Source: Candidatus Azambacteria bacterium RIFCSPHIGHO2_02_FULL_52_12 (GTDB taxonomy: Bacteria; Patescibacteriota; Minisyncoccia; GWC2-36-17; WO2-46-25). From it: 33,938 bases of DNA. The stretch's first letter is position 1. Every line of letters starts with the position of its first letter. The notes beneath the pieces were generated by a model. It saw only the letters and a program-made list of their open reading frames with translations. It was not told where the DNA came from and did no database searches. The DNA lies in contig MEYP01000005.1 of NCBI GenBank assembly GCA_001775835.1, positions 13,457 through 47,394 of the forward strand, written 5' to 3'. Positions 4,880 to 32,970 of the stretch are shown here, in pieces. A program made the translations under genes and the position numbers.

Positions 4880-5856
4880 GAAATAAGATTTAAAATAAGC
4901 TTCACTGTTTTTTCTTTATGCGTAGGATTGCTTTCAGCCACGAGAACCGTTAGAGCGGTCAGTGCGGATGGAGTAAGTCTCACAACATCTAAAATACCGG
5001 TTTGCTTCAAAAACCACACGAAGGCAAAAGCACCGCTCCGCTTATTGCCATCGATAAAAGGGTGGTTCTTGACCATGAAATACAAAAGATGTGCCGCTTT
5101 TTCTTCAACGGTCGGGTAGACTTCTTTGCCTCCGAACGACTGCATTACATTGCCCACAATCCCGGAAACGGCCCCGGCGCTTCGTTCGGTGCCGAAAATG
5201 TCTGTTGCCTCTGATTTTTCAAGAAGCGACGTTTTCAGTTGCGCCAAGTCTTTCGATATTTCTTTCGCAGTAAACTCAACGTGCTTCTTGGTAAGTTTTT
5301 TCTTCGGGAGCAATTCTCTGTCATACGCATCAAGAGAAAGCCATGTGTCGGCAAAAAGGGAAACCAATTCCACAGCGTCTTTTGGGTGAAGCGCTGAACC
5401 TGCGGGAAGCAGTTTTTTAATATCTTCCACCACGCCCAAAAACCGCGCATGGTTTTTGGCAATACGATTTTTATTGATCGCATAACCGTCGATGATGTAA
5501 CCGCGAAGTGTTTTTGTCGCCCATTGGCGAAACAACGTAGCCTTTTTACTATTTACCCTATATCCAATCGATAGCACAAGATCAAGATTGTAATACTCGA
5601 CAGTTCTTTTTATGGAACGCTTTCCCTCAATTTGAACTGTTTCCATTTTGGAAACAGTTGCTTTTTTTATTAATTCTCCCGAATCAAAGATATTTTTTAT
5701 ATGCTTTGAGATAGCTGATTTTTGTACATTAAAAATATCAGCAACTTGTTGTTGAGTAAGATGAATAGTCTCTTGCTTTATATCTATCGCAAGCTCAAGA
5801 GCTCCTGACTTATTTTGGTAGATAACAATATTCTTCTGCATTATTTTCTTCGGCAT
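4876..5856 (-). CDS. RhuM-family protein with C-terminal Fic/Doc domain
   Basis: N-terminal YNLDLVLSIGYRVNSKKATLFRQWAT; C-terminal HPFIDGNKRSG. Confidence 0.9.
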   Translation of the reverse strand: MPKKIMQKNIVIYQNKSGALELAIDIKQETIHLTQQQVADIFNVQKSAISKHIKNIFDSGELIKKATVSKMETVQIEGKRSIKRTVEYYNLDLVLSIGYRVNSKKATLFRQWATKTLRGYIIDGYAINKNRIAKNHARFLGVVEDIKKLLPAGSALHPKDAVELVSLFADTWLSLDAYDRELLPKKKLTKKHVEFTAKEISKDLAQLKTSLLEKSEATDIFGTERSAGAVSGIVGNVMQSFGGKEVYPTVEEKAAHLLYFMVKNHPFIDGNKRSGAFAFVWFLKQTGILDVVRLTPSALTALTVLVAESNPTHKEKTVKLILNLIS

Positions 5857-5956: not shown

Positions 5957-5973
5957 TCTGGTATGTATTTTGC

Positions 5974-6279
5974 TTAGTATTCCCCGATCTGCGTTTCTCC
6001 CGTGCGAAACACTTTTTCGACGGTGGATTCACCAATGTACTCCACCCGCTGGTCGTTCCAATATCCGATGCCGATACCTCCCGTCTCGCAAAACGCGTTT
6101 CGCTCCGCAAGCGTGAAATGATACCCGGCATGCACCAACTCTCCCGACACGCGTTCCCCGACAAAATCGCCCGGGACGATGTGGTCGAAACAGATCGCGC
6201 ATTGCACGGTCACGCAATTTTTCATGGCTTCTGCCGCCTTCTTTTTCCATTTTCTCCATCGAAACCATTCAAAGAACAT
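5974..6279 (-). CDS. Hypothetical protein (CxxC plus His, possible Zn binder)
   Basis: 101-aa ORF with a strong SD (GGAGGTGA); CAICFD...H...C. Confidence 0.6.
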   Translation of the reverse strand: MFFEWFRWRKWKKKAAEAMKNCVTVQCAICFDHIVPGDFVGERVSGELVHAGYHFTLAERNAFCETGGIGIGYWNDQRVEYIGESTVEKVFRTGETQIGEY

Positions 6280-6342
6280 GCAATCACCTCCCTTCTGTAA
6301 ACGACATTAGCATATCTGACCCGGAAAGTCGAATTGCATCGA

Positions 6343-6960
6343 TTAGAACCCGAGCTTTTCGCGCACCAGGATCAGGTGCACTTTTCTTCCCATAAAGACG
6401 GGTTCCCGCTCGAAGATGACGAGCTTGGAAATGGCGCTCCCGCCCATACCGACCTCTTTCATGCGCTTGTCTTCAAGCGGAAGAACATGCTCGCGCACGC
6501 GCGCGAGCGCTCTATCGAGATTTTGCGTTATCTTCTGCGTGCTTGCGACGAATATGAGGTTTGGCGAAGTGAAAACGATGTGGGGCAACTGACTGCCGGA
6601 ATTGGAAGCAATGATAAACTCGCCCGTCTCTGCGACCGCGTGCACGCTCCCCAGATAATAATCCGAGAGAACCGCCTGCTTGCGGAGCGTTGCCTGTTTC
6701 GCGGAATCCTTCTCGGCAAGGATTTCCTCATGCAGATTCTTCCAGCCGTGCGCGCCCGATTTGAGCCAGTCCACATACCCGATTTCCTCCAGCGTGCGCG
6801 AGGAGCCGTTCATCACCGAAGCGCCCTTGGAAATAAGCTCTTTTATTTTCTCAAGCGCTTCCGCACGCGTATCGACCGATATGCCCTCAACACCGCGCTC
6901 CGCAAGCGCGGCAATGGTCTTTTGGATGGATTTTTCGTCTGCTAATGTTTCGTAGTTCAT
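6343..6960 (-). CDS. LUD-domain (YkgG/lactate utilization) protein
   Basis: GSSRTLEEIG, SVHAVAETGE, SNSGSQ, QKI and C-terminal EKLGF. Confidence 0.85.
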   Translation of the reverse strand: MNYETLADEKSIQKTIAALAERGVEGISVDTRAEALEKIKELISKGASVMNGSSRTLEEIGYVDWLKSGAHGWKNLHEEILAEKDSAKQATLRKQAVLSDYYLGSVHAVAETGEFIIASNSGSQLPHIVFTSPNLIFVASTQKITQNLDRALARVREHVLPLEDKRMKEVGMGGSAISKLVIFEREPVFMGRKVHLILVREKLGF

Positions 6961-6969
6961 GTGAGTCTG

Positions 6970-8082
6970 TTATCGTTTCGGGCACGGCTCGCCGCCGGGA
7001 AGGCCGCACACTTTTATTTTTCCGCCGGAAGTAGTCGTGGGGGCCGTTGTGGCGGGTGCTGTTGGAGATGAAGGGGTTGCATCGGCGCTCGTGGAATCCT
7101 GCCCCGACGGAGGCACCACGCAATTGATTTCAAGGCGCTTCTTGGGTATCGCCCAACTGTAGTTTCGGCGTTCTCTTCCTATCCATGGTTTCCTTACTTG
7201 TTTCTCTCCTTCGAAAACGGTCATGGTAGTCTGAAGCGTGTAGTAAAACAAACTGCCGGCAAGAGGCGCGTCATAGCCCGCTTTGGCGCAGGTAAACCGG
7301 TTCGTTACCCGGTACTCTTCTGTGGCGGCGAGATCTGTTTTTTTGAGAATAATCTCCTGCGGTTCGACGCGCTCAAATGTTCTTATGCGATGCGGACTTC
7401 TGAAATCGGGGTTTACCTCCCATCGGGTGCCGTTCGCGATCTCAAGCATCGTATGGCGTCCGGATGCCTGAGCGACGTTTGGATCGGACTCGTCCCAATA
7501 CCCCCGAAACTCCCATTTTCCTCCGGGAGTGATGGCATAAGTATGATCGAATGACTGACCGACCGCGACGGTGATTTCTCCATCGGGGATATTCCGTGCG
7601 TCAAAGATCATCGCATCGGCCTTGGCGAGAAAATTGGAGAAGTGCGGCAACTCGCCGGAAACGGTAAGCGTCTTTTGTTTTTCATCCAACTGGAAGTCTG
7701 TGATATTAAGACCCTCAATCTTCCCCTCCTCGTCGGGATCAATAAGAAAAACCGGTGAATACGCCCTGTTCGGATCATACGGAAATGTAACCGATATCGT
7801 TGCGGGTTTCGAGAACGTAAGTCCGTCCGGCTCAAGCCGGTAGACTTTCACCAAATCAATGGGCTGATTGCTTTCTTTGATAACATCCGCGGGAGCAATC
7901 GCGGTCATTGTTATATCCCCGACAGCGCCACCCACAAGAACCGTGTCTTTGGGTATGCGCAGTTCCGCCGCGCCGTCATTCGCGCGCACAACAAAGGCAT
8001 CATCGGCCTTTTCCGGAAAAGCAAAGTACGCTCCCGCGAGCGCCAGCACAAGCAAAACCGCAAAAAGAGAAAGCTTCTTCAT
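6970..8082 (-). CDS. Secreted/anchored protein with ZU5-like domain and Pro/Thr-rich tail
   Basis: Signal-like start MKKLSLFAVLLVLALAG; YRLEPDGLTFSKPATI...PHFS; P/T/A-rich linker and terminal Cys pair. Confidence 0.65.
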   Translation of the reverse strand: MKKLSLFAVLLVLALAGAYFAFPEKADDAFVVRANDGAAELRIPKDTVLVGGAVGDITMTAIAPADVIKESNQPIDLVKVYRLEPDGLTFSKPATISVTFPYDPNRAYSPVFLIDPDEEGKIEGLNITDFQLDEKQKTLTVSGELPHFSNFLAKADAMIFDARNIPDGEITVAVGQSFDHTYAITPGGKWEFRGYWDESDPNVAQASGRHTMLEIANGTRWEVNPDFRSPHRIRTFERVEPQEIILKKTDLAATEEYRVTNRFTCAKAGYDAPLAGSLFYYTLQTTMTVFEGEKQVRKPWIGRERRNYSWAIPKKRLEINCVVPPSGQDSTSADATPSSPTAPATTAPTTTSGGKIKVCGLPGGEPCPKR

Positions 8083-8123
8083 GTGGGTATTGTACCGCTT
8101 CTTAGCAATACCGCAAGACCCGC

Positions 8124-8645
8124 CTACATAACGCACTCCGGCGTTTCGCAATTGTTAGGGTCCCAGCAGAATCCCGATCCTTCCCCCACCGTGCAATTTG
8201 CGCCCACCGCATAGGAATCGCGGTCAAAGGCGTTGATTTCATAAATACTATCCCAGTCAAAACCATATGCCGCAAAGATGTCCGCTGTAGCGATCCATCG
8301 CTTCTCGCCCGTATCACCTTTGGGATAGAGCATGAATACGCGCGGATCGCCGACTGCCCGAACCAAATGCGACGTGGTGAAACCGTCTCGTACGGCGGGC
8401 GTTACCTCGCGGATATCCTCCCAACGCAAATGTCCGTAGTTATCAAATACGCTCGGACTCAAAACCAGCCGCTTGAACTTTTTTGCGCCGACATATTTCA
8501 CGATATAGACATCGATATCGCCTGCGGCACGGATCAATGCGCCATCAGGCAGGGTGAAAGTCGCGCTTTGAGCAGAAACAAAAAGGGCGGATGCGCCAAG
8601 CGCCATGACGCTCACCGCAAACGTAATGATATATTTTTTCATCAT
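8124..8645 (-). CDS. Secreted hypothetical protein with two internal repeats and a Cys-rich tail
   Basis: Signal peptide; repeats LIRAAGDIDVY...KRLV...W and LVRAVGDPRVF...KRWI...W. Start at MMKKY after TATAAT. Confidence 0.7.
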   Translation of the reverse strand: MMKKYIITFAVSVMALGASALFVSAQSATFTLPDGALIRAAGDIDVYIVKYVGAKKFKRLVLSPSVFDNYGHLRWEDIREVTPAVRDGFTTSHLVRAVGDPRVFMLYPKGDTGEKRWIATADIFAAYGFDWDSIYEINAFDRDSYAVGANCTVGEGSGFCWDPNNCETPECVM

Positions 8646-8670
8646 GCTATTATTATACACCATAATCTCC

Positions 8671-8748
8671 AAAACCACCCAGAACTTCTTCAGGAAATCC
8701 TGCGCATCATGCGCACGGGCTGAATCCCCCTACGGCATTATCCCGCCC
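8671..8748 (-). repeat. 78-bp imperfect palindromic repeat, copy 1
   Basis: Gapless alignment to 11451 and 12509; central TGCGCAT-C-ATGCGCA. Confidence 0.95.
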
Positions 8749-8804
8749 GGGCTCTTTTATCGCAAACATAGAGCTGCAAATAATACCGTCTCCGTCCCCA
8801 TTTC

Positions 8805-9314
8805 CTAGAGTCCGTGGTCCATTGTCTGGGCCATGAACCACTCATGAAAGGCATCAATAATTCGCGGGTCAGAGGAGCGATACGCAAGCTGGGCGCCATC
8901 GGCGAGCTCTTCATAGGCGACGGTAAATGCTCCCGGTGATTCTTTCAGCACAGCAATGCCCGGCATGCTTTCTCCGTGCAGGGTTTGCGGATCGCCAAAA
9001 TCTCCCTTGGCAAACCGCTCTTGCTCCGCTTTCAGGTGAGAACGGATAAGCGCGATCTGCTCGCGATCGTTCGGATCTTTTGCCCGTACCTGCTGGATAC
9101 CGCCCTCCGGCGTCTTATTGAATAAGTGCGTCGTTTTAGCCAAATCAAACGGCATGACCAGCGACCCTCGATCATGAATCATCATTTGCCGTTTGGCGAT
9201 ATCCGAAGGAGGCTGCACCCAAAGCGCATCGCCGCGCTGCCACCAATATGTGCCGCCTACAGCGATTGCGCCGCCAAAAGCAATGAGAATAAAAAGGATC
9301 GTCTTGCGTTTCAT
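8805..9314 (-). CDS. Conserved membrane-anchored hypothetical protein
   Basis: N-terminal TM; VMPFDLAKTTHLF, GDFGDPQTLHGESMPG and HEWFMAQTMDHG motifs. Confidence 0.75.
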   Translation of the reverse strand: MKRKTILFILIAFGGAIAVGGTYWWQRGDALWVQPPSDIAKRQMMIHDRGSLVMPFDLAKTTHLFNKTPEGGIQQVRAKDPNDREQIALIRSHLKAEQERFAKGDFGDPQTLHGESMPGIAVLKESPGAFTVAYEELADGAQLAYRSSDPRIIDAFHEWFMAQTMDHGL

Positions 9315-10275: not shown

Positions 10276-10671
10276 CTACAAAATTTTAGAATATTCGGGA
10301 TAATTTTCTTTCACTAAATTCTTCCAGCTTGCAGTTTCGTTACCGCCACCCAGATCATTTTTATTGTAAACAACTAACACCTTAACGACGCAAGTATTTT
10401 TATATACAGCGACAATGCAACGGTTTCCTGAAGCGTGTCGAGATTCCTGCGTGCCATGAACACGAAATTCTGTCTTACAAATTCTTATACCTTCCTGATC
10501 GGTCATGGTTTCCGCAATATTAGTTTCCCCGATAAGCGCATCGATACGCTTAAACTCTTCATGTATTGCGTTCCATGTCACATCCCAAGCCCCTTTATAT
10601 TTTTTCTTAAACTTAGAGATAAAGTGTCGCTCAGCATATTTTTCAACGATAACGGCATAATTAATAGACAT
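10276..10671 (-). CDS. Putative RelE/ParE-like toxin
   Basis: 131 aa, overlaps the antitoxin gene; SGNRCIVAV...VKVLVVYNKND resembles the RelE/HigB C-terminal pattern. Confidence 0.55.
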   Translation of the reverse strand: MSINYAVIVEKYAERHFISKFKKKYKGAWDVTWNAIHEEFKRIDALIGETNIAETMTDQEGIRICKTEFRVHGTQESRHASGNRCIVAVYKNTCVVKVLVVYNKNDLGGGNETASWKNLVKENYPEYSKIL

Positions 10672-11344
10672 AATCAGGATCTTGCTGAATTATCAGTTCG
10701 TACGGTATGGCTTCATCAGGAGCGCAAAGTTTGTACGGAAGTTGTTCATGAGTAAAATCGACAATATCGCGAGTATTTTTATTTTTCCATTTTCCACCGA
10801 TTTTTTTTATAAGTTCTACTTCTTTATCATTCAGCAAATCAAGTTTTTGTTTAGAAGAGGAACCGGAAAGCGACACAAGAAACGCGTCTCCTTTATGATC
10901 AACGGATATTTTACCTTCTTCCTCAAGCTCTGTAAGGGCTCGAAAATAAGGGTCGGGTACGGGACCATACGCACGGCGCAGATACTGCATCCCGCTCATG
11001 CTATTCAGATTTTTGTAATACCATGCAAAATCAGCAAGATAGAGTAACTTTGCTAATTTTGTTTTTGGTATTTTGCCGTCAGTAGCTACGGAAGATTTTA
11101 GATATGCAAGGATCATTTGTTTATACTTCTCGTATTTGGGCAACGTTGCGCTGGCAAATTCCTCAATAGAAATACCAAACAAATCTTTTAATTTCTCCGC
11201 TTCTTCTAAAGTTATTTCACGACTTCCATGCTCAATACCAATGTATGAAGGTCTTGAAATATTAAGCTTCCCGGCCATAAAAGACTGGGAAAAACCCCGT
11301 CCCGTTCTAAGAGCCTTGATAAATTGCGCATATTTATTACTCAT
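10661..11344 (-). CDS. XRE-HTH plus Panacea (DUF4065/SocA) antitoxin
   Basis: N-terminal HTH (SQSFMAGKLNISRPSYIGIEHG); KLAKLLYLAD, YGPVP and FTHEQLPY motifs. Start MSNKY chosen from promoter position. Confidence 0.88.
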   Translation of the reverse strand: MSNKYAQFIKALRTGRGFSQSFMAGKLNISRPSYIGIEHGSREITLEEAEKLKDLFGISIEEFASATLPKYEKYKQMILAYLKSSVATDGKIPKTKLAKLLYLADFAWYYKNLNSMSGMQYLRRAYGPVPDPYFRALTELEEEGKISVDHKGDAFLVSLSGSSSKQKLDLLNDKEVELIKKIGGKWKNKNTRDIVDFTHEQLPYKLCAPDEAIPYELIIQQDPDYVY

Positions 11345-11351
11345 ATATCTA

Positions 11352-11403
11352 AGCATATAGATTTATGTAAAAAAGTCAAGCATGGGGTGTTAATAAACTT
11401 GAC
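11352..11403 (-). promoter_or_regulatory. Promoter TTGACT-16-TATGCT with inverted repeat GTCAAG...CTTGAC (candidate autoregulatory operator)
   Basis: -35 at 11374-11379, -10 at 11352-11357; inverted hexamers at 11375-11380 and 11398-11403. Confidence 0.5.
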
Positions 11404-11450
11404 ATTATGCATGTACGCATAGCGCTTTTTCTTCGTACTGTTAAAACTTT

Positions 11451-11528
11451 AAAACCACCCGGAACTTCTTCGGGAAATCCTGCGCATCATGCGCATGGGC
11501 CGAATCCCTCTGCGGCATTACCCCGCTC
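11451..11528 (-). repeat. 78-bp imperfect palindromic repeat, copy 2
   Basis: 8 differences from copy 1, all transitions. Confidence 0.95.
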
Positions 11529-11612: not shown

Positions 11613-11786
11613 AGTTTTTGCCTTTAGACGGGATTGTTCAAATACCCTTCTTTGATCTTCATTCGCCTTTCGTATGACCTCTTGAAATAGGCGCTTTTTT
11701 TCTCGAGAACTTGCATCATTAAAAAAAGCTGAAAAATCGCTCTTTTGCAAGCTTTTGCCAAATAATTTAGTTAAAATCCGTTTCAT
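11607..11786 (-). CDS. 59-aa zeta-toxin-associated small protein (putative antitoxin); absent from the ORF track
   Basis: MKRILTKLFGKSLQKSDFSAFFNDASSREKKRLFQEVIRKANEDQRRVFEQSRLKAKTG; ATGA overlap with the zeta gene stop. Confidence 0.75.
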   Translation of the reverse strand: MKRILTKLFGKSLQKSDFSAFFNDASSREKKRLFQEVIRKANEDQRRVFEQSRLKAKTG

Positions 11787-12484
11787 TTAATGAGGTTTAT
11801 TAATTCTTCTTCAGTATATATCTTGTCTAAATAATGGTCAATGGTGTCAATATTCAATTTAAGAAGCTCTAACCCGGTATTAAAATTCTTTATGATGAGG
11901 TTTAATTCTACTTTGTCCTTGAATTGCCGTTTCGCTTCATTCACATTCTCTCTTGAAGCAAGAAAACCCTTGATAAACATCTCTTTTGAAACTCTTCGAT
12001 GCTCAATTTCCTCTCTTTTCTTAGTAAAATCCCACGCAACAATAGGATCTTGGAAAAGATAGAAGATTTCAATCTTCCTGCCATGATCAATTGACCTTTG
12101 AATATTGAGAAGCGCTCCTTTGTAAGCGAAGGTTCCGTCTAAAACAACATTAAGTTGATTTTTAATGACATAATCGTAAAGTTTATTGACGCCAATTGAG
12201 CAGGCTGACTGAAATAAATGGGCATTGCTACCATTGTAATTAGGAAACATATTTCTAATCTCATCCGCATCAATTCGAACCGGCTTAGTAGAAAACCTCT
12301 CAATCAAACGCTTGGAAACTTCTGTTTTACCGGCACCCGGTGAGCCAGCCATAAAAAGAGAAACGGGACTGCTATCCGGTTTATAAAATGCCGGGTCGGC
12401 AAACTTTTTTATAAGCTTTTCTTTTTGCTCTTTTATAAATCTTTCCGATTCGGCGATAATTTTTTGTTCCTCATTATTTTCCAT
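11783..12484 (-). CDS. Zeta toxin family P-loop kinase
   Basis: FMAGSPGAGKT Walker A; RIDADEIR, VVLDGT and RRV motifs. Confidence 0.88.
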   Translation of the reverse strand: MENNEEQKIIAESERFIKEQKEKLIKKFADPAFYKPDSSPVSLFMAGSPGAGKTEVSKRLIERFSTKPVRIDADEIRNMFPNYNGSNAHLFQSACSIGVNKLYDYVIKNQLNVVLDGTFAYKGALLNIQRSIDHGRKIEIFYLFQDPIVAWDFTKKREEIEHRRVSKEMFIKGFLASRENVNEAKRQFKDKVELNLIIKNFNTGLELLKLNIDTIDHYLDKIYTEEELINLIK

Positions 12485-12508
12485 AAATCTATTGTACCCT
12501 ATAACACC

Positions 12509-12586
12509 AAAACCACCCAGAACTTCTTCAGGAAATCCTGCGCATCATGCGCATGAACTGAATCCCTCTACGGCGTTGTCCCATTC
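12509..12586 (-). repeat. 78-bp imperfect palindromic repeat, copy 3
   Basis: 9 differences from copy 1, all transitions. Confidence 0.95.
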
Positions 12587-12977: not shown

Positions 12978-13748
12978 CTACCGCACTTGATAAGTTCCTC
13001 GCTCCACAAAATCAAGATATCCTTTATCGCGCAAAACTTGTAGCTGTTGGCGGATTTTATCCTTGATATGCTTATTATCAGGGTGTAATTGGCTCAAATC
13101 TTTTTCAAACGCATATATATCATCGAGTCGAAATTCTTTTTTACCGATTTTGTCCACATACCGCATCACATCAAGCAGCCAGCCTTTCGCTGAAGCTTCT
13201 TTTTCTTCCCGCAGGAACAGCGTCTTCTTCCATTCCGCAAGCACTTTTTCCTTCGATTCAACTTGCTTATTTTTAACAAAAAATATTTTCCCCGTTTGCG
13301 GAATGCTTTGTAAGAGAATATTGCAACCAACCCAGCCCGCACGGCGAGCTGTCAGCGCAAGCTTTTTTCTCTTCTCGATTATTTCCGGCACAAAAAAGTG
13401 TTTTGGAATAACAAGAAAGTTTACAACTTCAAGGCTTGCTAAATTATAATTCAAAAGAAAAAAGTTTGGATTACTGCTACTAGTCAGCCGCTCAAGCATT
13501 GTGCGGTACGCTCCGTCAACAATCTTGTTCCCCATGCTATCTCGCTTACTCTTCAATTCATAATCTTCATTGCAATTTGGACAATAAAAATCACCGACGG
13601 GCTTGTTACTTTTGTATTTCCCTAAATCAACATATCCGCAATTCGGACAAAATATGGAATTGCCGACCCATGCTTCCGTCAAAACACGCGCTCTTTGCGC
13701 TAGATTTTTGTAATTCTCGGCAAGTTTTGTGTTAAAACCTAATTCCAT
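12978..13748 (-). CDS. DpnI-family (Dam-replacing) m6A-dependent restriction endonuclease
   Basis: CPNCG...DFYCPNC.EDYELKSK, IVDGAY, NPNFFLL, RRAGWVGC; winged-helix HIKDKIRQQLQVLRDKG. Confidence 0.93.
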   Translation of the reverse strand: MELGFNTKLAENYKNLAQRARVLTEAWVGNSIFCPNCGYVDLGKYKSNKPVGDFYCPNCNEDYELKSKRDSMGNKIVDGAYRTMLERLTSSSNPNFFLLNYNLASLEVVNFLVIPKHFFVPEIIEKRKKLALTARRAGWVGCNILLQSIPQTGKIFFVKNKQVESKEKVLAEWKKTLFLREEKEASAKGWLLDVMRYVDKIGKKEFRLDDIYAFEKDLSQLHPDNKHIKDKIRQQLQVLRDKGYLDFVERGTYQVR

Positions 13749-13917
13749 AGTTATTGTCCCTTGTCTCAATTTCCATCATTGAATAAATTTTCTAGATATA
13801 TAGCTATTCTGTGACTCATGGATTGTTCGTATGCGTGAAGACTCAGTAATTCAATATTATTATCAAGAAAAATTTAAACTACACTTTCGACTTTGCTTTA
13901 TAAATTTTCCATATTTT

Positions 13918-16740
13918 TTAACCTAACTTTTCCTTATTAAGAATTAATTTTATTTCTAGTTTGCTACACAAACTTTGTTTTTCAGAAATTTTCATATCAA
14001 ATTTGTACAGATATTCAATTACAAGTATGCGAAGGATTCTTCTTGCTAGGTAATTTTTTTCAAAAATTCTATCTAGATTTATAATTTCTTCAGAATGTAG
14101 TCCGCCTGGAAAATTAAGTCTAGCAGCCAAGTTAACAAGCTGGACACCTGGTCGTAAATCCTTTTCCGAAATCTTTTCCATGGTAGGAAATATATTTTTT
14201 GATGCGACGCTATTACTTATCCTTTTTAAAAAAGCATAAACAATCATTTCAGTGAAATTTTGAATGATTTTATCAGCAATTCGTTCTTTCTCAGCCTCAT
14301 CCACAGCCTTCTTCTTCTCAACCACCTTAAGGACTTCAATTTTAAGAGACTCAGCAAACTTTCCAAAATCATCAAGAAGTGCACCTAGAGCCCTAAAACC
14401 CAAGGAATTAATCTCAATTAGTATCTCTGCTTTCCTCTTACCCTCTAATGAGCCATAGTAATTTTGAGTAATTTGACCCATTATCTCTAACAATTTAAAA
14501 GACAAATTGATCTCTCCAAATAGGCCTAAATCTTTTTTGCTTTTGTGTTCTTTTTCTTTCTTATTGTCTTTCTCGTTAACTTCTTCGATTTCATCTCTCT
14601 TGGCAAGCTCTTTTTTCCGATATTCACTCGGTTTCTCGTCCTTGATAGTGAAACTAACTTCTTGGCGAATTAATTTATTAATTTCAAAGGATGCAGAATT
14701 TGTAAGCGCAAAAGGTTCAACTTCTTTGAAGAGATCCGAAGATTCTTTGATTATTTTCTCTAGAATTGATTTGCTTTTTGAATGATGTATTAAAAAGATT
14801 AGGATATTTGCATATTCTGTGCGGTATAGATGTTTAGTAATCTCTTCAATGTTTTGTTTAATATCATCATTTTCAATGTTATCGGCAAAATATTTTGCAA
14901 CAAAAAAATAATAAGAATAGTTATGACTGAATGAATATGAGTCATCATAAAATCTCAATATCTGGGCTCTATTTAGAAGCGGGTGGAGTATATCGAATTC
15001 TTTATCAATATCCATCTCTTGACTATAATTTTTATATATAACTTTAAGCTCGTTCAATGGTATAGATCTTTGACCTTTTCTAAAAAAAGAATATGCAAGG
15101 TATGATAAGTATGTAAGATAAAAATCAAGATCTTCTGGCTTTGCATTAACACTACCTAAAGACTGGATAATAAGATACGTATAAAGTTCTGCATATGAAC
15201 TACCTTGGAGCTTGTTTTTACTCGTAGTCTCAATTAACTGCAGAATTGTAAGCAGATAAAGCGGGTAGGTGGGAATAAAGTTTGTACCTACTGCAACTCT
15301 AATCTTTTCAGATATTTCAATTTTTTTATTATGTATATCACTGTCAGGAGTAATATCACCATCACCGGCTGTTAACCATTTTTCAATAAGCTTATCTCGC
15401 AAGACATAACCAAGTTCTTTTATTTTCAGTGGTATAAAACCAGTTAGTTGTTTTCGAGTTTCACTGTCGGCCATTACTTCAATCTCCATAGATTTGTTAG
15501 CAAAGATAATGACATTTTCAAAATGCTTATTTAGAAATTCATGAAAATCTGCCCTCGCTTGTGTCCTTTTAATACTAAGTGATTCGTAATTATCTATAAT
15601 TAGAGAGATTTTTGAGTTATCCTTCGAAAGGATGTCCTCGAAACAGCTAAGATATTGATCTCCATCAGAATATTGTTTTTTAAAAGAAGTTTTTAAAAGG
15701 TTTGTAAATTTATTTAAATCTGCTTTTTTTATATCTTCAGCATCTAAATAAAGCGAAATGAACCCTTTGCTGTTTATATCTTTTTGAAGCATTTGTGCCA
15801 AAGTCGTCTTGCCCGACAGGTCTTCTCCGAAAACCAGACATTTCTTGAGACCCTTTTCCAGTTCTACAAGTTTTTTAGAGTCAATTTTCTCTTGTTTCTC
15901 GTCCTCAATGGGTTCAAGACTTGGATAAATAAAGATGTCTTCCAAAGAAAGCACATCTTTACCAGGATGCGTGATATGCATCCCTATTTCATTTATTTTC
16001 CTAACATATACATCAGAAAGATTCATGCGCTCTGGACAAACTTGGTTGGCAAATATACCTATTTTGGGAAACTCACACACTTTTTTGCAATTAATATCTT
16101 TATGAAAGATCTCCGTCTGTATAAAAAAATCTAAAAGAGTGGCTTCTTTTACTAGCTCAGAAGTGAGGGCATTGGTAAAAATGACCCCATCTGGCATGCC
16201 TCCATTTAAGGTCTCGACAGCCCAGAAATTGCCCCGCTGTGAAATCACCAATGATACATTTCCAATTTTATTTTTATCTTTAATAGTCTCCTCGACAGCT
16301 CTTTCAGACAAGATACTTGGTTGAATAACTTTAGCATTAACATAAGCTTCGATAAGTTTGTCTGGAGTATAAAAAAAGAAATCGTGATTATTATCTTTTT
16401 TTAATTTATCGACTAAGCCCTCAGCATCTTTTGTTAGCGGTGCAGTAACCACAAGCCACGCCTCAGCATATTTATTGATCTCCTTTACTCCAAAAAGTTT
16501 TGTAATAACTTCAGCAGAAATATTTTTAGATTCATTATAGGCTTTGCACTCAACGTAGATTTCTTTACCATTAGTTTTATGTACACACAACAAATCCAGC
16601 TCCATGCCAGTAAGTCGTAGTTGTTTTTTAACCGCGTAATTTTGCGTTTCAAGAAGTTCTCCAGTTAACTTCTCGAGTATTTTACCCTTTTCTGTGGATG
16701 ATTCCGATTTTAAAATGGCGACTTTAATCGACTGAGACAT
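13918..16740 (-). CDS. Mrr-like nuclease fused to STAND/NACHT-like NTPase and a helical C-terminus
   Basis: N-terminal KGKILE...ELDL...YVECKAY (PD-ExK); Walker A GEDLSGKTT; Walker B LIIDNYE; PLYL; YSFSHNY. Start MSQSIK. Confidence 0.85.
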   Translation of the reverse strand: MSQSIKVAILKSESSTEKGKILEKLTGELLETQNYAVKKQLRLTGMELDLLCVHKTNGKEIYVECKAYNESKNISAEVITKLFGVKEINKYAEAWLVVTAPLTKDAEGLVDKLKKDNNHDFFFYTPDKLIEAYVNAKVIQPSILSERAVEETIKDKNKIGNVSLVISQRGNFWAVETLNGGMPDGVIFTNALTSELVKEATLLDFFIQTEIFHKDINCKKVCEFPKIGIFANQVCPERMNLSDVYVRKINEIGMHITHPGKDVLSLEDIFIYPSLEPIEDEKQEKIDSKKLVELEKGLKKCLVFGEDLSGKTTLAQMLQKDINSKGFISLYLDAEDIKKADLNKFTNLLKTSFKKQYSDGDQYLSCFEDILSKDNSKISLIIDNYESLSIKRTQARADFHEFLNKHFENVIIFANKSMEIEVMADSETRKQLTGFIPLKIKELGYVLRDKLIEKWLTAGDGDITPDSDIHNKKIEISEKIRVAVGTNFIPTYPLYLLTILQLIETTSKNKLQGSSYAELYTYLIIQSLGSVNAKPEDLDFYLTYLSYLAYSFFRKGQRSIPLNELKVIYKNYSQEMDIDKEFDILHPLLNRAQILRFYDDSYSFSHNYSYYFFVAKYFADNIENDDIKQNIEEITKHLYRTEYANILIFLIHHSKSKSILEKIIKESSDLFKEVEPFALTNSASFEINKLIRQEVSFTIKDEKPSEYRKKELAKRDEIEEVNEKDNKKEKEHKSKKDLGLFGEINLSFKLLEIMGQITQNYYGSLEGKRKAEILIEINSLGFRALGALLDDFGKFAESLKIEVLKVVEKKKAVDEAEKERIADKIIQNFTEMIVYAFLKRISNSVASKNIFPTMEKISEKDLRPGVQLVNLAARLNFPGGLHSEEIINLDRIFEKNYLARRILRILVIEYLYKFDMKISEKQSLCSKLEIKLILNKEKLG

Positions 16741-16827
16741 AATGTTTTGGGCGTACTTCCCGAGTGCGAGAATTACACATAAATTAGCTGGCCTTATGGG
16801 ACGATGTTGGAACTGCAATAAAGATGT

Positions 16828-17361
16828 TTAGTAATGCAAGCAAAATAACTTCAGTAGAAAAATCCAAGGCATAACTGACAATAAAAGTGCAGAATAAATA
16901 ACAATAAAAATCCAAGGAACCCAAATCTCGATATGGGTAAAAGGCCAGTATATACTTTTATCCTTGCCTCTTCCTAAGATTTCCCATTCCGTATCGTAAA
17001 GAGCTAAAGGTAAACGTGCCTCTATTATGTGAACAACATTATATTTTCCACCATTAAGGCCTTTATAAGACAATACAATTCGATACCATAAATAACACAT
17101 TGTTATTCCCGCTATAGAAGAAAGGATTAGTAGCCCCGTGATTTCATTTTGTGAAGTTTTTGTAGCAACAAATCCCAACAAAGCTACAAGCCCAGTATTT
17201 AGGCCGAGAAAAAACTCATTGGCCTTTTGTCGACGATCACTTATTTTTTCGGCAGAGTTTATATAGATTTTATACTGCTCTAAAAGATGCTCTATATATT
17301 TGTCTCCGTATTTACTACTTTCAGAAACAAAAAGTATTTTTTCAAGATCATCCTTTTTCAT
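16828..17361 (-). CDS. Small multi-TM protein (RipA/SLATT-like pore-forming effector candidate)
   Basis: LLEQYK...SDRRQKANEFF, two TMs, SYKGLN..KY..IE..LP, EW, third TM. Starts 1 nt after the TIR stop. Confidence 0.7.
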   Translation of the reverse strand: MKKDDLEKILFVSESSKYGDKYIEHLLEQYKIYINSAEKISDRRQKANEFFLGLNTGLVALLGFVATKTSQNEITGLLILSSIAGITMCYLWYRIVLSYKGLNGGKYNVVHIIEARLPLALYDTEWEILGRGKDKSIYWPFTHIEIWVPWIFIVIYSALLLSVMPWIFLLKLFCLHY

Positions 17362-17362
17362 G

Positions 17363-17770
17363 TTAAGCGAGTTCGCGAATACCAGATACAATAGAGCCCG
17401 TGTTCCACTTCACGATTTTATCTGCATTGTCTTTCACTACTTGAGACGTTCTTTCGCTCGCGAATGGTTCTATTGCGAGAATGGGTTTAGGAATTGTAAA
17501 CCCTTTCGCAATATTAATTTCTTTATTGATCCAAATGCTATAGGTTGAATAAACTCCGGCGAGCATGATAATCACATCACAAAATCGCATTTGATTTTGT
17601 ATTGCCGCCGTTAATGCAATGGAATTGGGAGCGTTATGAATAGGATCGTCCTTTGGAACTGAATAGTCCTTAAAGTTAAATCGTGGGTCATTTTTAAGCA
17701 TTTTAACAAGCCTTTCATAATTATCCTCATAAGCCCATGAATGGCTGATGAATATACTGTATTGTTTCAT
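17363..17770 (-). CDS. Stand-alone TIR domain protein (ThsB/MTH538-like)
   Basis: IFISHSW, DYS, CDVIIMLAG, WINKEI (catalytic Glu position), KPILAI. Confidence 0.9.
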   Translation of the reverse strand: MKQYSIFISHSWAYEDNYERLVKMLKNDPRFNFKDYSVPKDDPIHNAPNSIALTAAIQNQMRFCDVIIMLAGVYSTYSIWINKEINIAKGFTIPKPILAIEPFASERTSQVVKDNADKIVKWNTGSIVSGIRELA

Positions 17771-17887: not shown

Positions 17888-17946
17888 TGGACTTTCTACT
17901 TTTTTCGTATATACTGTAATTATATGCCTTTCGAATAATAAGTCAA
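17888..17946. promoter_or_regulatory. Overlapping opposed sigma70-like promoters
   Basis: + strand: TGGACT(17888)-16-TATACT(17910). - strand: TTGACT(17946)-16-TATAAT(17924). Confidence 0.55.
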
Positions 17947-17955
17947 CAATAAAAA

Positions 17956-19299
17956 ATGTTGGGGAAAAGAAAAAAACAAATATTAGATTTCGTCAATAGC
18001 TATGTTGGCAAGAATGGTTTTGCCCCATCTCTTGAGGAAATAAAAAAGAAAACCGGCCTTTCTTCTGTGTCGACAGTCCACCACCATCTTAAAGACCTTG
18101 AGAAACAAGGTTATATTAAACGACATGAGGGCAAGCCAAGAAGTATCGAAGCGAGAGATTTAACGGTTACAATTCCCTTGCGAGGATACATTGCTGCAGG
18201 CCAACCCATTGAAGCCATTGAGGTATATGAAACTATTGATGTTCCAAAAAATCTTTTGTCGGGTTCTGGTGAGCATTATGCTCTAAGAGTCTCAGGAGAC
18301 AGCATGATCGACGAAGGTATTTTTGATGGCGATACAGTTGTTGTTAGAAAACAAAATAGTGTTGAAAATGGAGAGACAGCAGTAGCTTTAATAAATGACA
18401 ATGAAGTTACTCTTAAAAAGATTTACAAGGAAAAAAACCGTATCAGACTGCAACCAGCGAATCCAAAATTAAGACCTTTCTATTTTAAAGAGGTGATTAT
18501 TCAAGGCAAGGTTGTAAGTACATTCAGAAATTTCGAAGAACAGGAGAAAAAAGATACTTTTAAATTTAATCAATTCCTCTGCGGAGACGTTTTAGAAATG
18601 ATCAAAAAAACTCCAGATAATTCAATACATTTTGCAGTAACTTCTCCACCATATAATGTTGGTAAGGACTACGACAACCATAACGATAAAATGAATCACC
18701 AAGAATATCTTGATTGGTTATATAAAGTCTGGATTGAAACAAAGAGAGTGCTTGTAGATGGTGGTCGTTTTGCAATCAACATAGCCCCTACTGGTATACG
18801 AGATTTTGTACCAATTCATCACGACTATATCGAACAAATGAAAAAACTTGGTATGAAATTCCGTACAGAAATTTTATGGTATAAACAAACAATGTTAAAA
18901 CGAACTGCTTGGGGTAGTTTTAAGAGTCCGTCTAATCCACACATTGTGCCATCATGGGAATATGTTTTGATTTTTACTAAAGGTGATAATCGCTTAGATG
19001 GTGATCAAAGAATGGCAGATATTACAAAAGAGGAATTTATGAAATTTTCTGATGGATTTTGGAAGATCCAGCCAGAAACAAAAAGGAAAGGACACCCCGC
19101 ACCATTTCCAGAGGATTTAATTTACAGGTTGATGAAATTTTACTCTTACAAGGGTAATAATGTGTTGGATATGTTTGGCGGAACCGGGACAGTTGCGGCG
19201 GTTGCTGCGAAAACAGGAAGAAATTTTATTCACATAGATATTTCACCGCAATACTGTAATGTGGCGAAAGATAGAGTAAATAAAATTCTAGGAAAGTAA
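17956..19299 (+). CDS. lexA: LexA repressor fused to beta-class N4-C/N6-A DNA methyltransferase
   Basis: LexA HTH (PSLEEI...SSVSTVHHHL..LE..GYI), IAAG cleavage site, GDSM Ser, TLKK Lys; then TSPPY, HPAPFP and DMFGGTGT in one frame. Confidence 0.9.
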   Translation: MLGKRKKQILDFVNSYVGKNGFAPSLEEIKKKTGLSSVSTVHHHLKDLEKQGYIKRHEGKPRSIEARDLTVTIPLRGYIAAGQPIEAIEVYETIDVPKNLLSGSGEHYALRVSGDSMIDEGIFDGDTVVVRKQNSVENGETAVALINDNEVTLKKIYKEKNRIRLQPANPKLRPFYFKEVIIQGKVVSTFRNFEEQEKKDTFKFNQFLCGDVLEMIKKTPDNSIHFAVTSPPYNVGKDYDNHNDKMNHQEYLDWLYKVWIETKRVLVDGGRFAINIAPTGIRDFVPIHHDYIEQMKKLGMKFRTEILWYKQTMLKRTAWGSFKSPSNPHIVPSWEYVLIFTKGDNRLDGDQRMADITKEEFMKFSDGFWKIQPETKRKGHPAPFPEDLIYRLMKFYSYKGNNVLDMFGGTGTVAAVAAKTGRNFIHIDISPQYCNVAKDRVNKILGK

Positions 19300-21342: not shown

Positions 21343-22077
21343 ATGTATTTCATTTTTAGAATGTATGGAGAAACCGTTGAAATCACAGAAATCGAAAAAG
21401 AGCCGAAAAAAGTACGCGTATATCGTTCCAGAAAAAGGAATCCTATACACGGGCTTAGGCGACCCGATAATATTAGAAGGGCGCGAAAAACATGTTTGTG
21501 GTGCGTGTCTGCTGCTGTTGCAGAACTTGGGTGCCCACTCTTGGTTACTCTCACCTTTGCGGGAGATGCGTCAGACGCCTCCTATGCGAATGATTCCCTT
21601 CGCGTCTTCCAAGTGCGGTTGCGAGCTCAGTTCCCTGATGCGCAATCCCTCTTTGTTCCAGAGCTTTCCCCCCGAGGACGAATCCATTTTCATGGCTTAC
21701 TTTTTAACGTGCCGTTGTCTCTCGGAGATACGCGCAATGGTAAGCGGGTCGTTTCGTACGGCGATGAACGTAAATTACGAACCCTTGCTGAGTTATGGGG
21801 AGAGGGTTATGTTGATGCGAGAAAGACTGATGGTTCTCCAAGGCTGGCAAGTTATCTCAGTAAGTACATAACGAAGGGCGCTGGACAGGTTATGTTCAAT
21901 GCGATGCGCCTTTTACGGATATCGCGTGGCTTCCCACGAGAGGATGTCGTTCGTGGCGACCTTGCAAAAGAACTCGCGCGCCGTTATGCTATGCGTAAAC
22001 CCGCAAGAGTGTGGAAGGGCGATAATATATTTCTTGGACACATTAAGAAAACAATGTATTATCAGAATGTAAAATGA
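21343..22077 (+). CDS. HUH rolling-circle replication initiator
   Basis: Motif 1 LVTLTF; motif 2 ELSPRGRIHFHGL; motif 3 YLSKYITK with two Tyr. Confidence 0.88.
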   Translation: MYFIFRMYGETVEITEIEKEPKKVRVYRSRKRNPIHGLRRPDNIRRARKTCLWCVSAAVAELGCPLLVTLTFAGDASDASYANDSLRVFQVRLRAQFPDAQSLFVPELSPRGRIHFHGLLFNVPLSLGDTRNGKRVVSYGDERKLRTLAELWGEGYVDARKTDGSPRLASYLSKYITKGAGQVMFNAMRLLRISRGFPREDVVRGDLAKELARRYAMRKPARVWKGDNIFLGHIKKTMYYQNVK

Positions 22078-23582
22078 ACTACATCATCTACACTAGAAAA
22101 TCTACCGATACTGAAGATAGGCAGGTTCTGTCTTTGGATTCTCAAGAAAGAGAGCTTTTAGAGATAGCGGATAAGCACAATCTCAAAGTGGTAAAGACGT
22201 TCCGAGAAAGCATGTCTGCTAAATCTGCGGGACGTCCAATTTTTAACGAAATGATGGCGTTGGTTGAGTCAGGTAAGGCCCGAGGAATCCTTTGTTGGAA
22301 GTTGGATCGTCTTGCTCGTAACTTTGTTGATGGTGGTAAAGTTATTGATTCTTTGCAGAGGGGTGCTATACAAGAAATCAGGACGTACGAATCAACCCAC
22401 TTACCTTCCGACAACGTTCTCCTTCTTGCTGTTCAGCTTGGTATGGCTAATCAGTATATCCGGGATTTAAGTGTAAATGTAAAGCGTGGCAACCGAGAGA
22501 AGCTCTCTCGTGGTGAATGGCCTAATCATGCCCCCTTTGGATACTTGAATGATAAAGCCACCAAAACAGTTATTGTTGATCCTGTGCGTTCCCCATATGT
22601 TGTACGAGCTTTTGATCTGTATCTTATCGGCAGTTATAGCTTTAAAAATATTTCTGACATTCTGTATCAGGAAGGTTTGCGGACGAAATCTGGCAAGAAA
22701 GTGTTGAGGGGTCACATCCAAAAAATCATTACCTCTGTTTTTTACACGGGCATCATGAAACGGGAAGGAAAATATTACAACGGCAACCATCAGCCCCTTA
22801 TTTCTAAAGATACATTTGATAAAGCACAGGGGCTTTCTGGTAATCGATCACGACCTCGTCCACAAAAACTTTTCTTTCCACTCCGAGGTTTCCTCACGTG
22901 TGAAAGTTGTGGGTGTATGCTCACTGCCTCTTTGAAAAAAGGTCATCATTACTACTACTGCACCAACGGCAAGCAAAAATGCGATGAACACAAAAGCTAT
23001 CTTCGGGAAAATACCTTATACCAGTCTATCGCTGAAATCCTTGGCTCGTTAGATTTTACCGAACGAAAGATTGAGCTTATGTATCAGGCCGCAAAAGCAA
23101 GGTCTGGTGGTGATACTGAATACGTCCAGAAGGCATTAGAAACGCTTCAGACGCAATTAGAATCGCTTAAGACTAAAGAGATGAAGCTCTTGGACGCTTT
23201 CTTGGCTGAGCAGATACCCAAGGAGCTTTACGATCAGAAAACGCTTGAATTGCAGAATGAACGGATTTCAACTATGAGACAGCTTCGAGAAACAAAATCA
23301 AAACAAACAGTTTCCACTTTGGAACCGGTCAAAGAAGTGTTTTTACGCGCTAGCAGAGCCAAAAAAGAATTCTTGGAGGGTGATGATACAAAAAAGCATA
23401 CCATCCTACAAAGTTTACTTTGGAACCTTTCTCTTAAAGACAAAATTATGGCTTCAGTAAGCCTTAAAAGTCCTTATGACATTATGTCTAAAGCACCTAA
23501 AAACGGGGGTTTCTCTACAAAGCTGCGGGACCTGGATTCGAACCAAGATAACGACCTTCAGAGGGTCGCGTCCTACCGTTAG
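22074..23582 (+). CDS. Large serine recombinase (resolvase, recombinase, Zn ribbon, coiled coil)
   Basis: YTRKST catalytic Ser, ESMSAK..GRP.F, KLDRLARN, APFGY, CESCG...YYYC...C. Confidence 0.95.
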   Translation: MNYIIYTRKSTDTEDRQVLSLDSQERELLEIADKHNLKVVKTFRESMSAKSAGRPIFNEMMALVESGKARGILCWKLDRLARNFVDGGKVIDSLQRGAIQEIRTYESTHLPSDNVLLLAVQLGMANQYIRDLSVNVKRGNREKLSRGEWPNHAPFGYLNDKATKTVIVDPVRSPYVVRAFDLYLIGSYSFKNISDILYQEGLRTKSGKKVLRGHIQKIITSVFYTGIMKREGKYYNGNHQPLISKDTFDKAQGLSGNRSRPRPQKLFFPLRGFLTCESCGCMLTASLKKGHHYYYCTNGKQKCDEHKSYLRENTLYQSIAEILGSLDFTERKIELMYQAAKARSGGDTEYVQKALETLQTQLESLKTKEMKLLDAFLAEQIPKELYDQKTLELQNERISTMRQLRETKSKQTVSTLEPVKEVFLRASRAKKEFLEGDDTKKHTILQSLLWNLSLKDKIMASVSLKSPYDIMSKAPKNGGFSTKLRDLDSNQDNDLQRVASYR

Positions 23583-23593
23583 ACGATCCCGCA
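23523..23593 (-). tRNA. tRNA-Gln(CTG)
   Basis: TGCGGGA/TCCCGCA acceptor stem; CGACC-CTCTGAA-GGTCG anticodon arm; GGTTCGAATCC. Confidence 0.95.
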
Positions 23594-30976: not shown

Positions 30977-31615
30977 CTACGCCTTGTTTGTATGAGAGCT
31001 CAGGATAAAAACGGACGCGCAAACAAAAACGGTGAAGATAAAAATATACGACACGAGCAACGGCCAGAAGTCGTTTACCAGGACTACCAGCGACCCGCCG
31101 AGGCCGGCAAACAGAAACCCAAGACCGAGAAAAAATAGTGGCACTTTATTTTTCTTTATATTGGCCAGATTCGAGAGGAACGTGACCCCCAGAGCAAGCG
31201 TAAAAAGAATAATACCGATACTAAATACTATTGCATCAATAATGGCATAATGCCAATAAATAAGAAATCCTTGTATGACGGGTTGGGGCAAAGCATTCAT
31301 GCCGACAAATAGTTTTATAAAGGAAAAAACTGCGACCACCGCACTGATGAAATTCGGCGAAACGCTTTTCACCTGCTGAAATCGTATGAACGCGCGCAAG
31401 ACAAATGCAAATGAAAACAGCATGATAAAATTGCCGATTTCGGCGGCGATACCTGAAGAAAACGCATATAACGTAAAACTCATGACTAAGAAAACAAAAA
31501 ACAGGTAAAACTCATGATAATTTTGACCGCCTGTTTTTTTCCACGCCTTATAAAAAAAGGCGCTTGCCCACAAAGATATTATGGCGGAAAACAAATAGAC
31601 AAAAATAGAAAACAT
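30977..31615 (-). CDS. Multi-TM (~7) membrane protein, paralog 3
   Basis: MFSIFVYLF start; LIYWHY and LGLGF..GG shared with its neighbours. Confidence 0.8.
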   Translation of the reverse strand: MFSIFVYLFSAIISLWASAFFYKAWKKTGGQNYHEFYLFFVFLVMSFTLYAFSSGIAAEIGNFIMLFSFAFVLRAFIRFQQVKSVSPNFISAVVAVFSFIKLFVGMNALPQPVIQGFLIYWHYAIIDAIVFSIGIILFTLALGVTFLSNLANIKKNKVPLFFLGLGFLFAGLGGSLVVLVNDFWPLLVSYIFIFTVFVCASVFILSSHTNKA

Positions 31616-31626
31616 ATATGCTTACT

Positions 31627-32280: not shown

Positions 32281-32282
32281 AG

Positions 32283-32945: not shown

Positions 32946-32970
32946 ATATTTATTTCATTATAGCACATAC

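Follow-up and report, generated by a model that had tools for sequence, protein, structure and literature searches.

Do three neighbouring genes in a 33,938-nucleotide (nt) stretch of the genome of Candidatus Azambacteria bacterium RIFCSPHIGHO2_02_FULL_52_12 (contig MEYP01000005.1; this whole stretch is the window below) form one anti-phage system or two? The genes encode a small TIR protein (P0001), a small membrane protein of the Pfam family PF24838 (P0002) and a large STAND NTPase (P0003). A sequence-only reading of the window had described three co-oriented AT-rich genes, and this description holds: all three lie on the minus strand, at a guanine-plus-cytosine (GC) content of 0.32 to 0.36 across 13.5 to 18 kb compared with 0.52 to 0.58 in the flanks. 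It had left two alternatives, a TIR-signal-gated membrane effector or a system of three parts whose sensor would be the STAND protein. The first is the best reading of the TIR-membrane protein pair, while the second did not survive, and the three genes most probably make up two independent anti-phage modules, both on one mobile island. By analogy with Thoeris systems, we think it probable that the TIR makes a signal, that a ring of the PF24838 protein is the membrane effector and that the STAND protein acts alone.

A TIR gene paired with a PF24838 membrane protein

P0001 matched the Pfam family ThsB_TIR (E 1.3e-13) and the PADLOC ThsB models (E down to 3.1e-8). Its AlphaFold2 (AF2) model has a TIR fold with a predicted local distance difference test (pLDDT) value of 89.8, and Foldseek gave template modelling (TM) scores of 0.70 to 0.71 to the B. 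cereus TIR 8fz9 (138 amino acids, aa), 0.68 to EcThsB2 8v6t, 0.69 to nucleoside deoxyribosyltransferases (NDTs) and 0.62 to DNPH1, which ranked first. Relatives of P0002 are accompanied by two types of TIR, type A (135 aa, P0001-like) and type B (124 aa), which are ~17 to 25% identical to each other. For both, ThsB profiles and solved ThsB chains are a better match than NDT profiles, with type B scoring 1.4e-7 against ThsB_TIR and 1.6e-6 against TIR_2. S37, E84 and W122 are invariant in 34/34 aligned TIRs of both types, which upholds the ThsB-like TIR with a conserved glutamate of the sequence-only reading. Glu84 of P0001 aligns with a glutamate of solved ThsB chains, which we take to be the established catalytic residue of TIR NADases; no residue number for it in B. 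cereus ThsB was found in PMC7272460. The accessible text of a paper on type II Thoeris mentions "the catalytic glutamate" of ThsB TIRs (PMC11204291).

The TAA stop codon of the TIR gene is followed by one base and then the ATG of the P0002 gene, as had been claimed for a protein of about three membrane spans lying 1 nt after the TIR. P0002 matched PF24838 at 144.4 bits (E 2.5e-42, profile positions 1 to 134 of 136, gathering cut-off 30 bits), and Pfam names this family "octameric membrane protein family (8xMP)". The AF2 model of P0002 (pLDDT 95.8, predicted TM score 0.84) consists of a long helix at residues 22 to 68, a second at 71 to 114, a short one at 121 to 128 and a third long one at 141 to 163. 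Hydrophobic stretches put three likely membrane spans at ~49 to 67, 75 to 97 and 141 to 163, and hydrophobicity together with the Lys/Arg distribution suggests that the N terminus is inside and that segments 22 to 48 and 98 to 140, both conserved, are cytoplasmic. Foldseek found no PDB match for P0002 at E<=0.001 (best E 2.2), and sequence, profile and Foldseek searches for solved relatives of 8xMP gave nothing meaningful.

P0002 is predicted to self-associate. A four-copy model scored 0.61 versus 0.00 for the best control, with runs that agreed in at least 95% of contacts and a partner pLDDT of at least 74. The predicted interface is head-to-tail, in keeping with a ring or filament. Residues 41 to 47, 105 to 109 and 113 to 125 are part of it, and conserved positions fall there, near R43/R44, K106, E114-P118 and E125.

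We compared 92 loci encoding P0002 relatives, 12 from genomes and 80 from metagenomes, and classed the upstream gene by tblastn in the 78 loci with at least 420 nt upstream of the 8xMP match. A same-strand TIR gene lies directly upstream of the 8xMP gene in 67 of these 78 loci, or in 52 of 62 non-redundant clusters when the 8xMP proteins are clustered at 90% identity. The upstream TIR is type A in 14/78 loci and type B in 43/78, and both types are present in the order B-A-8xMP in 10/78. Among loci with shorter flanks, six have TIR fragments and eight were not judgeable. The conserved operon thus holds one or two minimal ThsB-type TIRs (124 to 135 aa) and then the PF24838 protein, and such interchangeable or doubled TIRs beside one effector resemble the Thoeris pattern. 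The closest 8xMP-bearing loci come from metagenome-assembled genomes (MAGs) titled Saccharibacteria or Patescibacteria.

The family is much wider than this clade. A profile search for the family in 1.84 billion representatives returned 3974 matches at E<=0.001, each standing for a cluster at 50% identity, and 2396 matches at the stricter E<=1e-10. PF24838 scored above the cut-off in 6/401 genomes sampled from the window's phylum and in 25/401 sampled from Bacteroidota. Among 105 ORFs (open reading frames) from 27 Bacteroidota loci with 1.5-kb flanks, we found 25 8xMP, 9 ThsB_TIR and 5 TIR_2 proteins together with BsuBI/PstI restriction enzymes, JetD (Wadjet), AbiEii-type AAA_21, HipA, BrnT and integrases; a custom TIR profile placed a TIR directly upstream in six Bacteroidota loci. 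The TIR link is therefore near-universal in the P0002 clade and frequent, not general, in the family. NCBIfam has no model that covers 8xMP members, and among the papers listed by a search of literature text, judged by titles and the starts of abstracts, none was evidently on the 8xMP/PF24838 family. The nearest named cluster in a protein atlas was PycTM at 0.76, under the tool's own lead level. A supposed link between 8xMP and Francisella RipA could not be confirmed and was dropped.

Ten longer 8xMP forms were scanned. One of them, P0352, is a TIR-8xMP fusion, P0363 is fused to an NMT1-type solute-binding domain and the remainder have unassigned extensions, including the ~220-aa hydrophobic N-terminal extensions of P0300 and P0327, which have no Pfam match. 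Long 8xMP ORFs in two Bacteroidota loci also matched the custom TIR profile (L136 at 1.4e-8 and L124 at 8.1e-6).

Some individual loci show further features. In every locus in which a TIR was not detected, the 8xMP protein is <=51% identical to P0002; one of them (L112) has a TIR_2 protein upstream and another (L108) a DUF4062-NACHT-TPR protein downstream. The orphan 8xMP proteins encoded in L007 (region 6001-9223) and L010 (region 5971-7887) are 42 to 44% identical to P0002. Downstream of 8xMP in L007, Pfam identifies an S24 LexA-like gene and a gene for a PIF1-type helicase, and in L010 the ORF after 8xMP resembles that helicase, by eye only. A Magnetococcales MAG encodes a 542-aa cytidine/dCMP deaminase-domain protein (L013:3647-5272), with a weak AAA_18 match below the Pfam cut-off, ~0.7 kb upstream of an 8xMP gene that has no TIR and separated from it by one 202-aa ORF. 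A Bacteroidetes MAG carries an additional, third TIR gene (L009:4951-5436, minus strand, ThsB_TIR 4.3e-12) immediately upstream of the TIR-8xMP pair but on the other strand; it adjoins a gene for a 1018-aa TrwB/TraG-like ATPase (L009:1313-4369, minus strand).

Comparison with Thoeris and the proposed mechanism

The accessible text of a December 2025 preprint lists 29 putative types of Thoeris and reports validation of types V to XI (10.64898/2025.12.03.692087). The type V effector ThsF is a DUF2270/PF10028 protein with three membrane helices, modelled as a heptamer, with 3'cADPR (an isomer of cyclic ADP-ribose, cADPR) as its signal; the type VII effector ThsH is a SLATT protein with cADPR as its signal; and the type X effector is an ion channel. 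For types V and VII the models are homo-oligomers, in which positively charged pockets between protomers are the proposed signal sites (10.64898/2025.12.03.692087). The main text of this preprint mentions neither PF24838 nor Patescibacteria, Figure 1C and Table S1 lying outside that text.

The pair resembles the Thoeris types with membrane effectors (II with TM-Macro, V, VII and X) in that a ThsB-type TIR immediately precedes a small membrane protein of several helices. As in Thoeris, an effector may be accompanied by differing numbers of TIR genes and the pair sits in a defence island, and as in types V and VII, 8xMP is a predicted homo-oligomer with conserved polar residues between protomers. 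Its effector, by contrast, is a PF24838 protein without a Macro domain, and its TIRs are very small. The sequence-only reading had seen no SLOG, Macro or SIR2 domain, and we likewise found no Pfam match to any of these at E up to 1 in any of the three proteins; membership in Thoeris type I or II was rejected on this result. The hhalign and Pfam comparisons given below placed 8xMP in none of the effector families that the accessible text of the preprint names.

We propose that upon infection the TIR, via Glu84, would convert NAD+, or a nucleotide related to it, to a small signal, which would bind the cytoplasmic face of the 8xMP protomer ring. R43, R44, N48, K106, H111, E114, E125 and W126 are conserved and lie at or near the modelled protomer interface. 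The ligand-bound ring would then open or disrupt the membrane, and this damage would stop the infected cell before the phage cycle completes. There is good support for the pair as a candidate Thoeris-type system whose effector family is so far unvalidated.

Several points weigh against this proposal. A TIR was not detected in 11 of the 78 evaluable loci (10/62 non-redundant), and in four of these, all in Patescibacteria MAGs (L007, L008, L010 and L011), the 8xMP gene stands among ordinary genes, so the tie of the 8xMP family to TIRs is not a strict one. In the Bacteroidota sample, a TIR lies no more than 1.5 kb from the 8xMP gene in only ~1/3 of the loci. Direct physical coupling would account for the TIR-8xMP fusion no less well than diffusible signalling would, and the TIR substrate may not be NAD+, because the P0001 model resembles DNPH1 and deoxyribosyltransferases. 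Homology of 8xMP to DUF2270 was rejected, with hhalign giving a probability of 0.2% versus a 20-sequence DUF2270 profile and no Pfam match. A comparison with a 9-sequence profile of SLATT_1, the one SLATT subfamily compared by hhalign, gave 2.9% and aligned only the N-terminal helix and the first membrane helix; P0002 has no SLATT match in Pfam, and one distant 8xMP member matched SLATT_1 at E 0.23. The four-copy score of 0.61 was attained by 20/30 proteins solved as same-chain pairs and by 1/23 solved as single chains, proportions that hold only roughly here because the proteins of the calibration were run in two copies and with other alignments. Defence, signal production, ligand gating and membrane damage by the TIR and 8xMP are steps that we infer.

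Some of these observations would suit a reversed logic, in which the 8xMP ring is a membrane sensor or scaffold for phage-caused membrane events that clusters the TIR, and the TIR is the effector that depletes NAD+ or another nucleotide. TIR NADases generally require clustering for activity, the TIRs here are bare domains of 124 to 135 aa without a sensor domain, P0352 joins the partners in one chain, and two long Bacteroidota 8xMP ORFs match the TIR profile as well. We nevertheless judge this arrangement unlikely. Two TIR types that are ~20% identical serve the same 8xMP, together in the 10 loci that carry both, and for TIRs so divergent a shared small-molecule signal is easier to accommodate than a docking surface common to both. 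There are also solved ThsB-type TIRs about as small, such as 8fz9.

It is more doubtful still that the pair has no part in defence, with 8xMP a general channel or regulator and the TIR-like protein an N-glycosidase of the DNPH1/NDT kind in metabolism or element addiction. The orphan 8xMP genes among ordinary genes, the very large size of the family at E<=0.001, the first rank of DNPH1 for the TIR model and the zeta toxin and Panacea antitoxin genes on the same island all speak for it. Set against these are the sporadic occurrence of the pair in two phyla (the 6/401 and 25/401 genomes above), the low-GC islands with restriction, Wadjet, Abi and toxin-antitoxin genes nearby, and the better fit of the TIRs to ThsB profiles and solved chains than to NDT profiles. 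We continue to favour a TIR that produces a signal and an 8xMP ring that receives it.

The STAND protein and its independence from the pair

The start of P0003 is supported by homologues, whose alignment begins at the same ATG. The claim of a 940-aa nuclease-STAND protein stands: the N terminus matched Pfam Mrr_cat (E 3.2e-10, residues 19 to 112), and the nuclease residues E47, D49, E64 and K66 as well as Walker A G305/G310/K311 and D383 are invariant in 22/22 homologues. The Pfam NTPase match is nSTAND_NTPase4, in the long C-terminal region. A sub-threshold match to the "inactive" NA-iREase1 family (26 bits versus 27) is a doubtful assignment, because the conserved E47/D49/E64/K66 do not fit it.

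P0003 matched PADLOC PDC-S60, a candidate and not a validated system, at 296 bits (E 1.6e-88, residues 240 to 931 versus positions 191 to 889 of 906 in the model). It also matched NCBIfam DS8_antiphage (NF053861) at 1.9e-181, over residues 236 to 930 only (model 305 to 994), with a score of 605.2 bits that is under the 790 cut-off of this DS-8 equivalog. According to the accessible text, DS-8 (DefensePredictor) is an experimentally validated single-protein metallophosphatase-NACHT system, in which mutation of either domain abolishes defence (PMC13092281). P0003 resembles DS-8/PDC-S60 in a homologous NTPase and ~690-aa C-terminal region and in being a single protein with an N-terminal effector, and differs from DS-8 in that this effector is an Mrr-type PD-(D/E)xK nuclease instead of a metallophosphatase. 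Its order of N-terminal nuclease, central STAND NTPase and predicted C-terminal sensor in one protein is like that of Avs/AVAST and bacterial NACHT proteins; unlike Avs, its NTPase is nSTAND_NTPase4 and no Avs model was among its PADLOC matches at E up to 1.

The N-terminal domain varies among 113 relatives of P0003. It is Mrr_cat in 70 (proteins of ~940 aa), TIR in 16 (~830 to 850 aa), Metallophos in 11 (~1030 aa) and DUF4062 in 1. This variation makes P0003 the nuclease-armed form of an effector-swapping sensor chassis, and such swapping is typical of stand-alone, single-protein STAND systems. Homology thus shows P0003 to be a predicted stand-alone STAND NTPase of the DS-8/PDC-S60 family, and it is a new member of a known family. 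Its C-terminal region would sense a phage component, sensing would lead to ATP-dependent oligomerisation, and the N-terminal Mrr-type nuclease would then cut DNA. Relatives of P0003 on viral contigs align only to the first ~200 residues, the Mrr part.

The distribution of the two families, as far as sequence comparison can tell, shows that the STAND gene is independent of the TIR-8xMP pair. In none of the 92 8xMP loci did tblastn at E<=1e-3 detect a P0003 homologue within the fetched flanks. The STAND family (E<=1e-20) occurs in 3 and 8xMP in 6 of the 401 genomes sampled from the phylum, and the only genome with both is that of the window. The neighbourhood comparison thus confirmed that the TIR-membrane protein pair recurs and did not extend this to the STAND gene, and adjacency within a defence island is no evidence of one system. 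We read the locus as two modules because of these two counts, the effector swapping of P0003 itself and the ability of DS-8 to work alone.

One point on the other side is that P0002 and P0003 may be co-transcribed at the window locus, because no terminator was predicted between their genes. A single three-part system, in which the STAND protein would detect phage and govern both other proteins, would gain from this, from the adjacency, common orientation and 87-nt gap between the P0002 stop and the P0003 start, and from the TIR fused to some P0003 relatives, which shows that STAND-TIR coupling exists elsewhere, but we consider it highly improbable given the two counts above, the conserved nuclease effector that P0003 has of its own and a DS-8 relative that needs no partner.

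The locus had also been called undescribed, which is true in part. The pairing of a TIR with PF24838 is not mentioned in searchable literature text, to which the figures and tables of the preprint do not belong, but the parts fall in named families or classes: P0003 matches PDC-S60 and DS8_antiphage, P0002 belongs to a named Pfam family, and operons of a TIR and a membrane effector are already published as Thoeris types II, V, VII and X.

The island and its relatives

The low-GC stretch extends over ~10.0 to 23.5 kb of the window and is a mobile (integrative) defence island (Table 1). The divergent LexA-S24-methyltransferase fusion matched Pfam LexA_DNA_bind (4.3e-18), Peptidase_S24 (6.8e-31) and N6_N4_Mtase (8.6e-46) and is adjoined by a gene for a BsaWI-like restriction enzyme; the island also encodes a rolling-circle Rep-like protein. 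We looked for a direct repeat marking the island ends and found none, and an Rfam scan of the region gave only the tRNA and one sub-threshold small RNA match. The promoter-like site upstream of the TIR gene is weak evidence, because such sites are not more frequent in the region (16) than in shuffles (17.7).

Table 1 Positions of the features of the window, counted from its first letter
Feature	Position	Strand	Length	Remarks
RhuM/Fic-domain gene	4876-5856	minus		PADLOC candidate PDC-S23 (3.9e-111)
HTH-SocA/Panacea gene	10661-11356	minus		Pfam
GC-rich element, copy 1	11442-11524		83 nt
Zeta toxin gene	11783-12484	minus		Pfam
GC-rich element, copy 2	12500-12582		83 nt
DpnI-like methyl-directed restriction endonuclease	12978-13769	minus		Pfam; PADLOC mREase_II 1.5e-114
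STAND gene P0003	13918-16740	minus	940 aa	Length counted from ATG
Membrane-protein gene P0002 (PF24838/8xMP)	16828-17361	minus	177 aa	Length counted from ATG
TIR gene P0001 (thsB-like, type A)	17363-17770	minus	135 aa
Promoter-like site TTGACT-16-TATAAT	17919-17946	minus		Upstream of TIR gene; 11/12 consensus positions
LexA-S24-N6/N4 DNA methyltransferase fusion	17956-19299	plus		Divergent from TIR gene
Large serine recombinase	22074-23582	plus		Resolvase 1.4e-20, Recombinase, Zn_ribbon_recom; island right end
tRNA-Gln	23522-23593	minus		Abuts serine recombinase

A LexA-like S24 gene lies <2 kb upstream of the 8xMP gene in 16 of the 48 loci with at least 2.5 kb upstream available and is co-oriented with it in 15 of those 16; an N6/N4 methyltransferase gene is found farther upstream in 16/48 loci. 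Elsewhere the LexA-like genes upstream of TIR-8xMP operons are free-standing (loci including L003, L005, L040 and L091). This recurring LexA-S24/methyltransferase neighbourhood suggests a recurrent island family, and SOS-type control of the pair is a possibility. The pair is reminiscent of lambda RexAB, likewise a two-gene module of one cytoplasmic and one membrane component that lies, as the pair often does (the 16/48 loci), beside an S24 repressor gene of LexA/CI type carried by a mobile element. The likeness is by description, with no sequence relation seen or looked for, and RexA, unlike P0001, is not a TIR.

The one IMG/VR contig with the pair, G802 (L165/L166; CheckV 31%), bears FtsA, FtsZ, ClpB and a tRNA synthetase. 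Its island holds a resolvase, a reverse transcriptase with bAvd (parts of a diversity-generating retroelement), methyltransferases, a LexA-like/S24 gene, a TIR and 8xMP. A phage origin of the TIR-8xMP pair was considered and rejected, there being no phage structural family among the first 25 of 53 families listed for this contig; the contig looks chromosomal, and we regard the stretch with the pair as an island, not a prophage.

Other features of the window lie apart from the three genes. The two copies of the 83-nt GC-rich element are 84% identical and flank the zeta-toxin gene within the AT-rich island; ORFs crossing the copies have a common peptide, and no Rfam match above threshold was found there. 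The RhuM/Fic gene sits in a second, smaller low-GC patch at ~5.0 to 6.5 kb (GC 0.41 to 0.45). Positions 31000 to 33000 have low GC (0.41), an AT skew of +0.30 to +0.35 and three co-oriented minus-strand ORFs of 212 to 220 aa.

The source genome is 923 kb in 28 contigs and 96% complete, and the genomes sampled from the same phylum are 0.5 to 1.3 Mb. Neither the flank nor the locus had a megablast match in E. coli genomes. To our knowledge, abortive-infection signalling has hardly been studied in the ultra-small bacteria of the candidate phyla radiation (CPR). A tentative extension of our proposal, which we hold with less confidence than the proposal itself, is that PF24838 is a large family of ring-forming membrane effectors, that one clade partners minimal TIRs as a further Thoeris type whose signal may differ from the known cADPR isomers, and that this clade is carried beside LexA-type repressors on CPR integrative islands.

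With P0003, the Mrr-STAND protein, the validated DS-8 family comes to include a nuclease effector, and the protein illustrates how effectors are swapped on a single sensor chassis. If the TIR and 8xMP work as a Thoeris-type system, they would add a structurally distinct family of membrane effectors to TIR signalling and would offer very small TIR enzymes with which to look for new signal molecules. They would also mean that suicide-type immunity is carried on mobile islands of episymbiotic bacteria with genomes <1 Mb.

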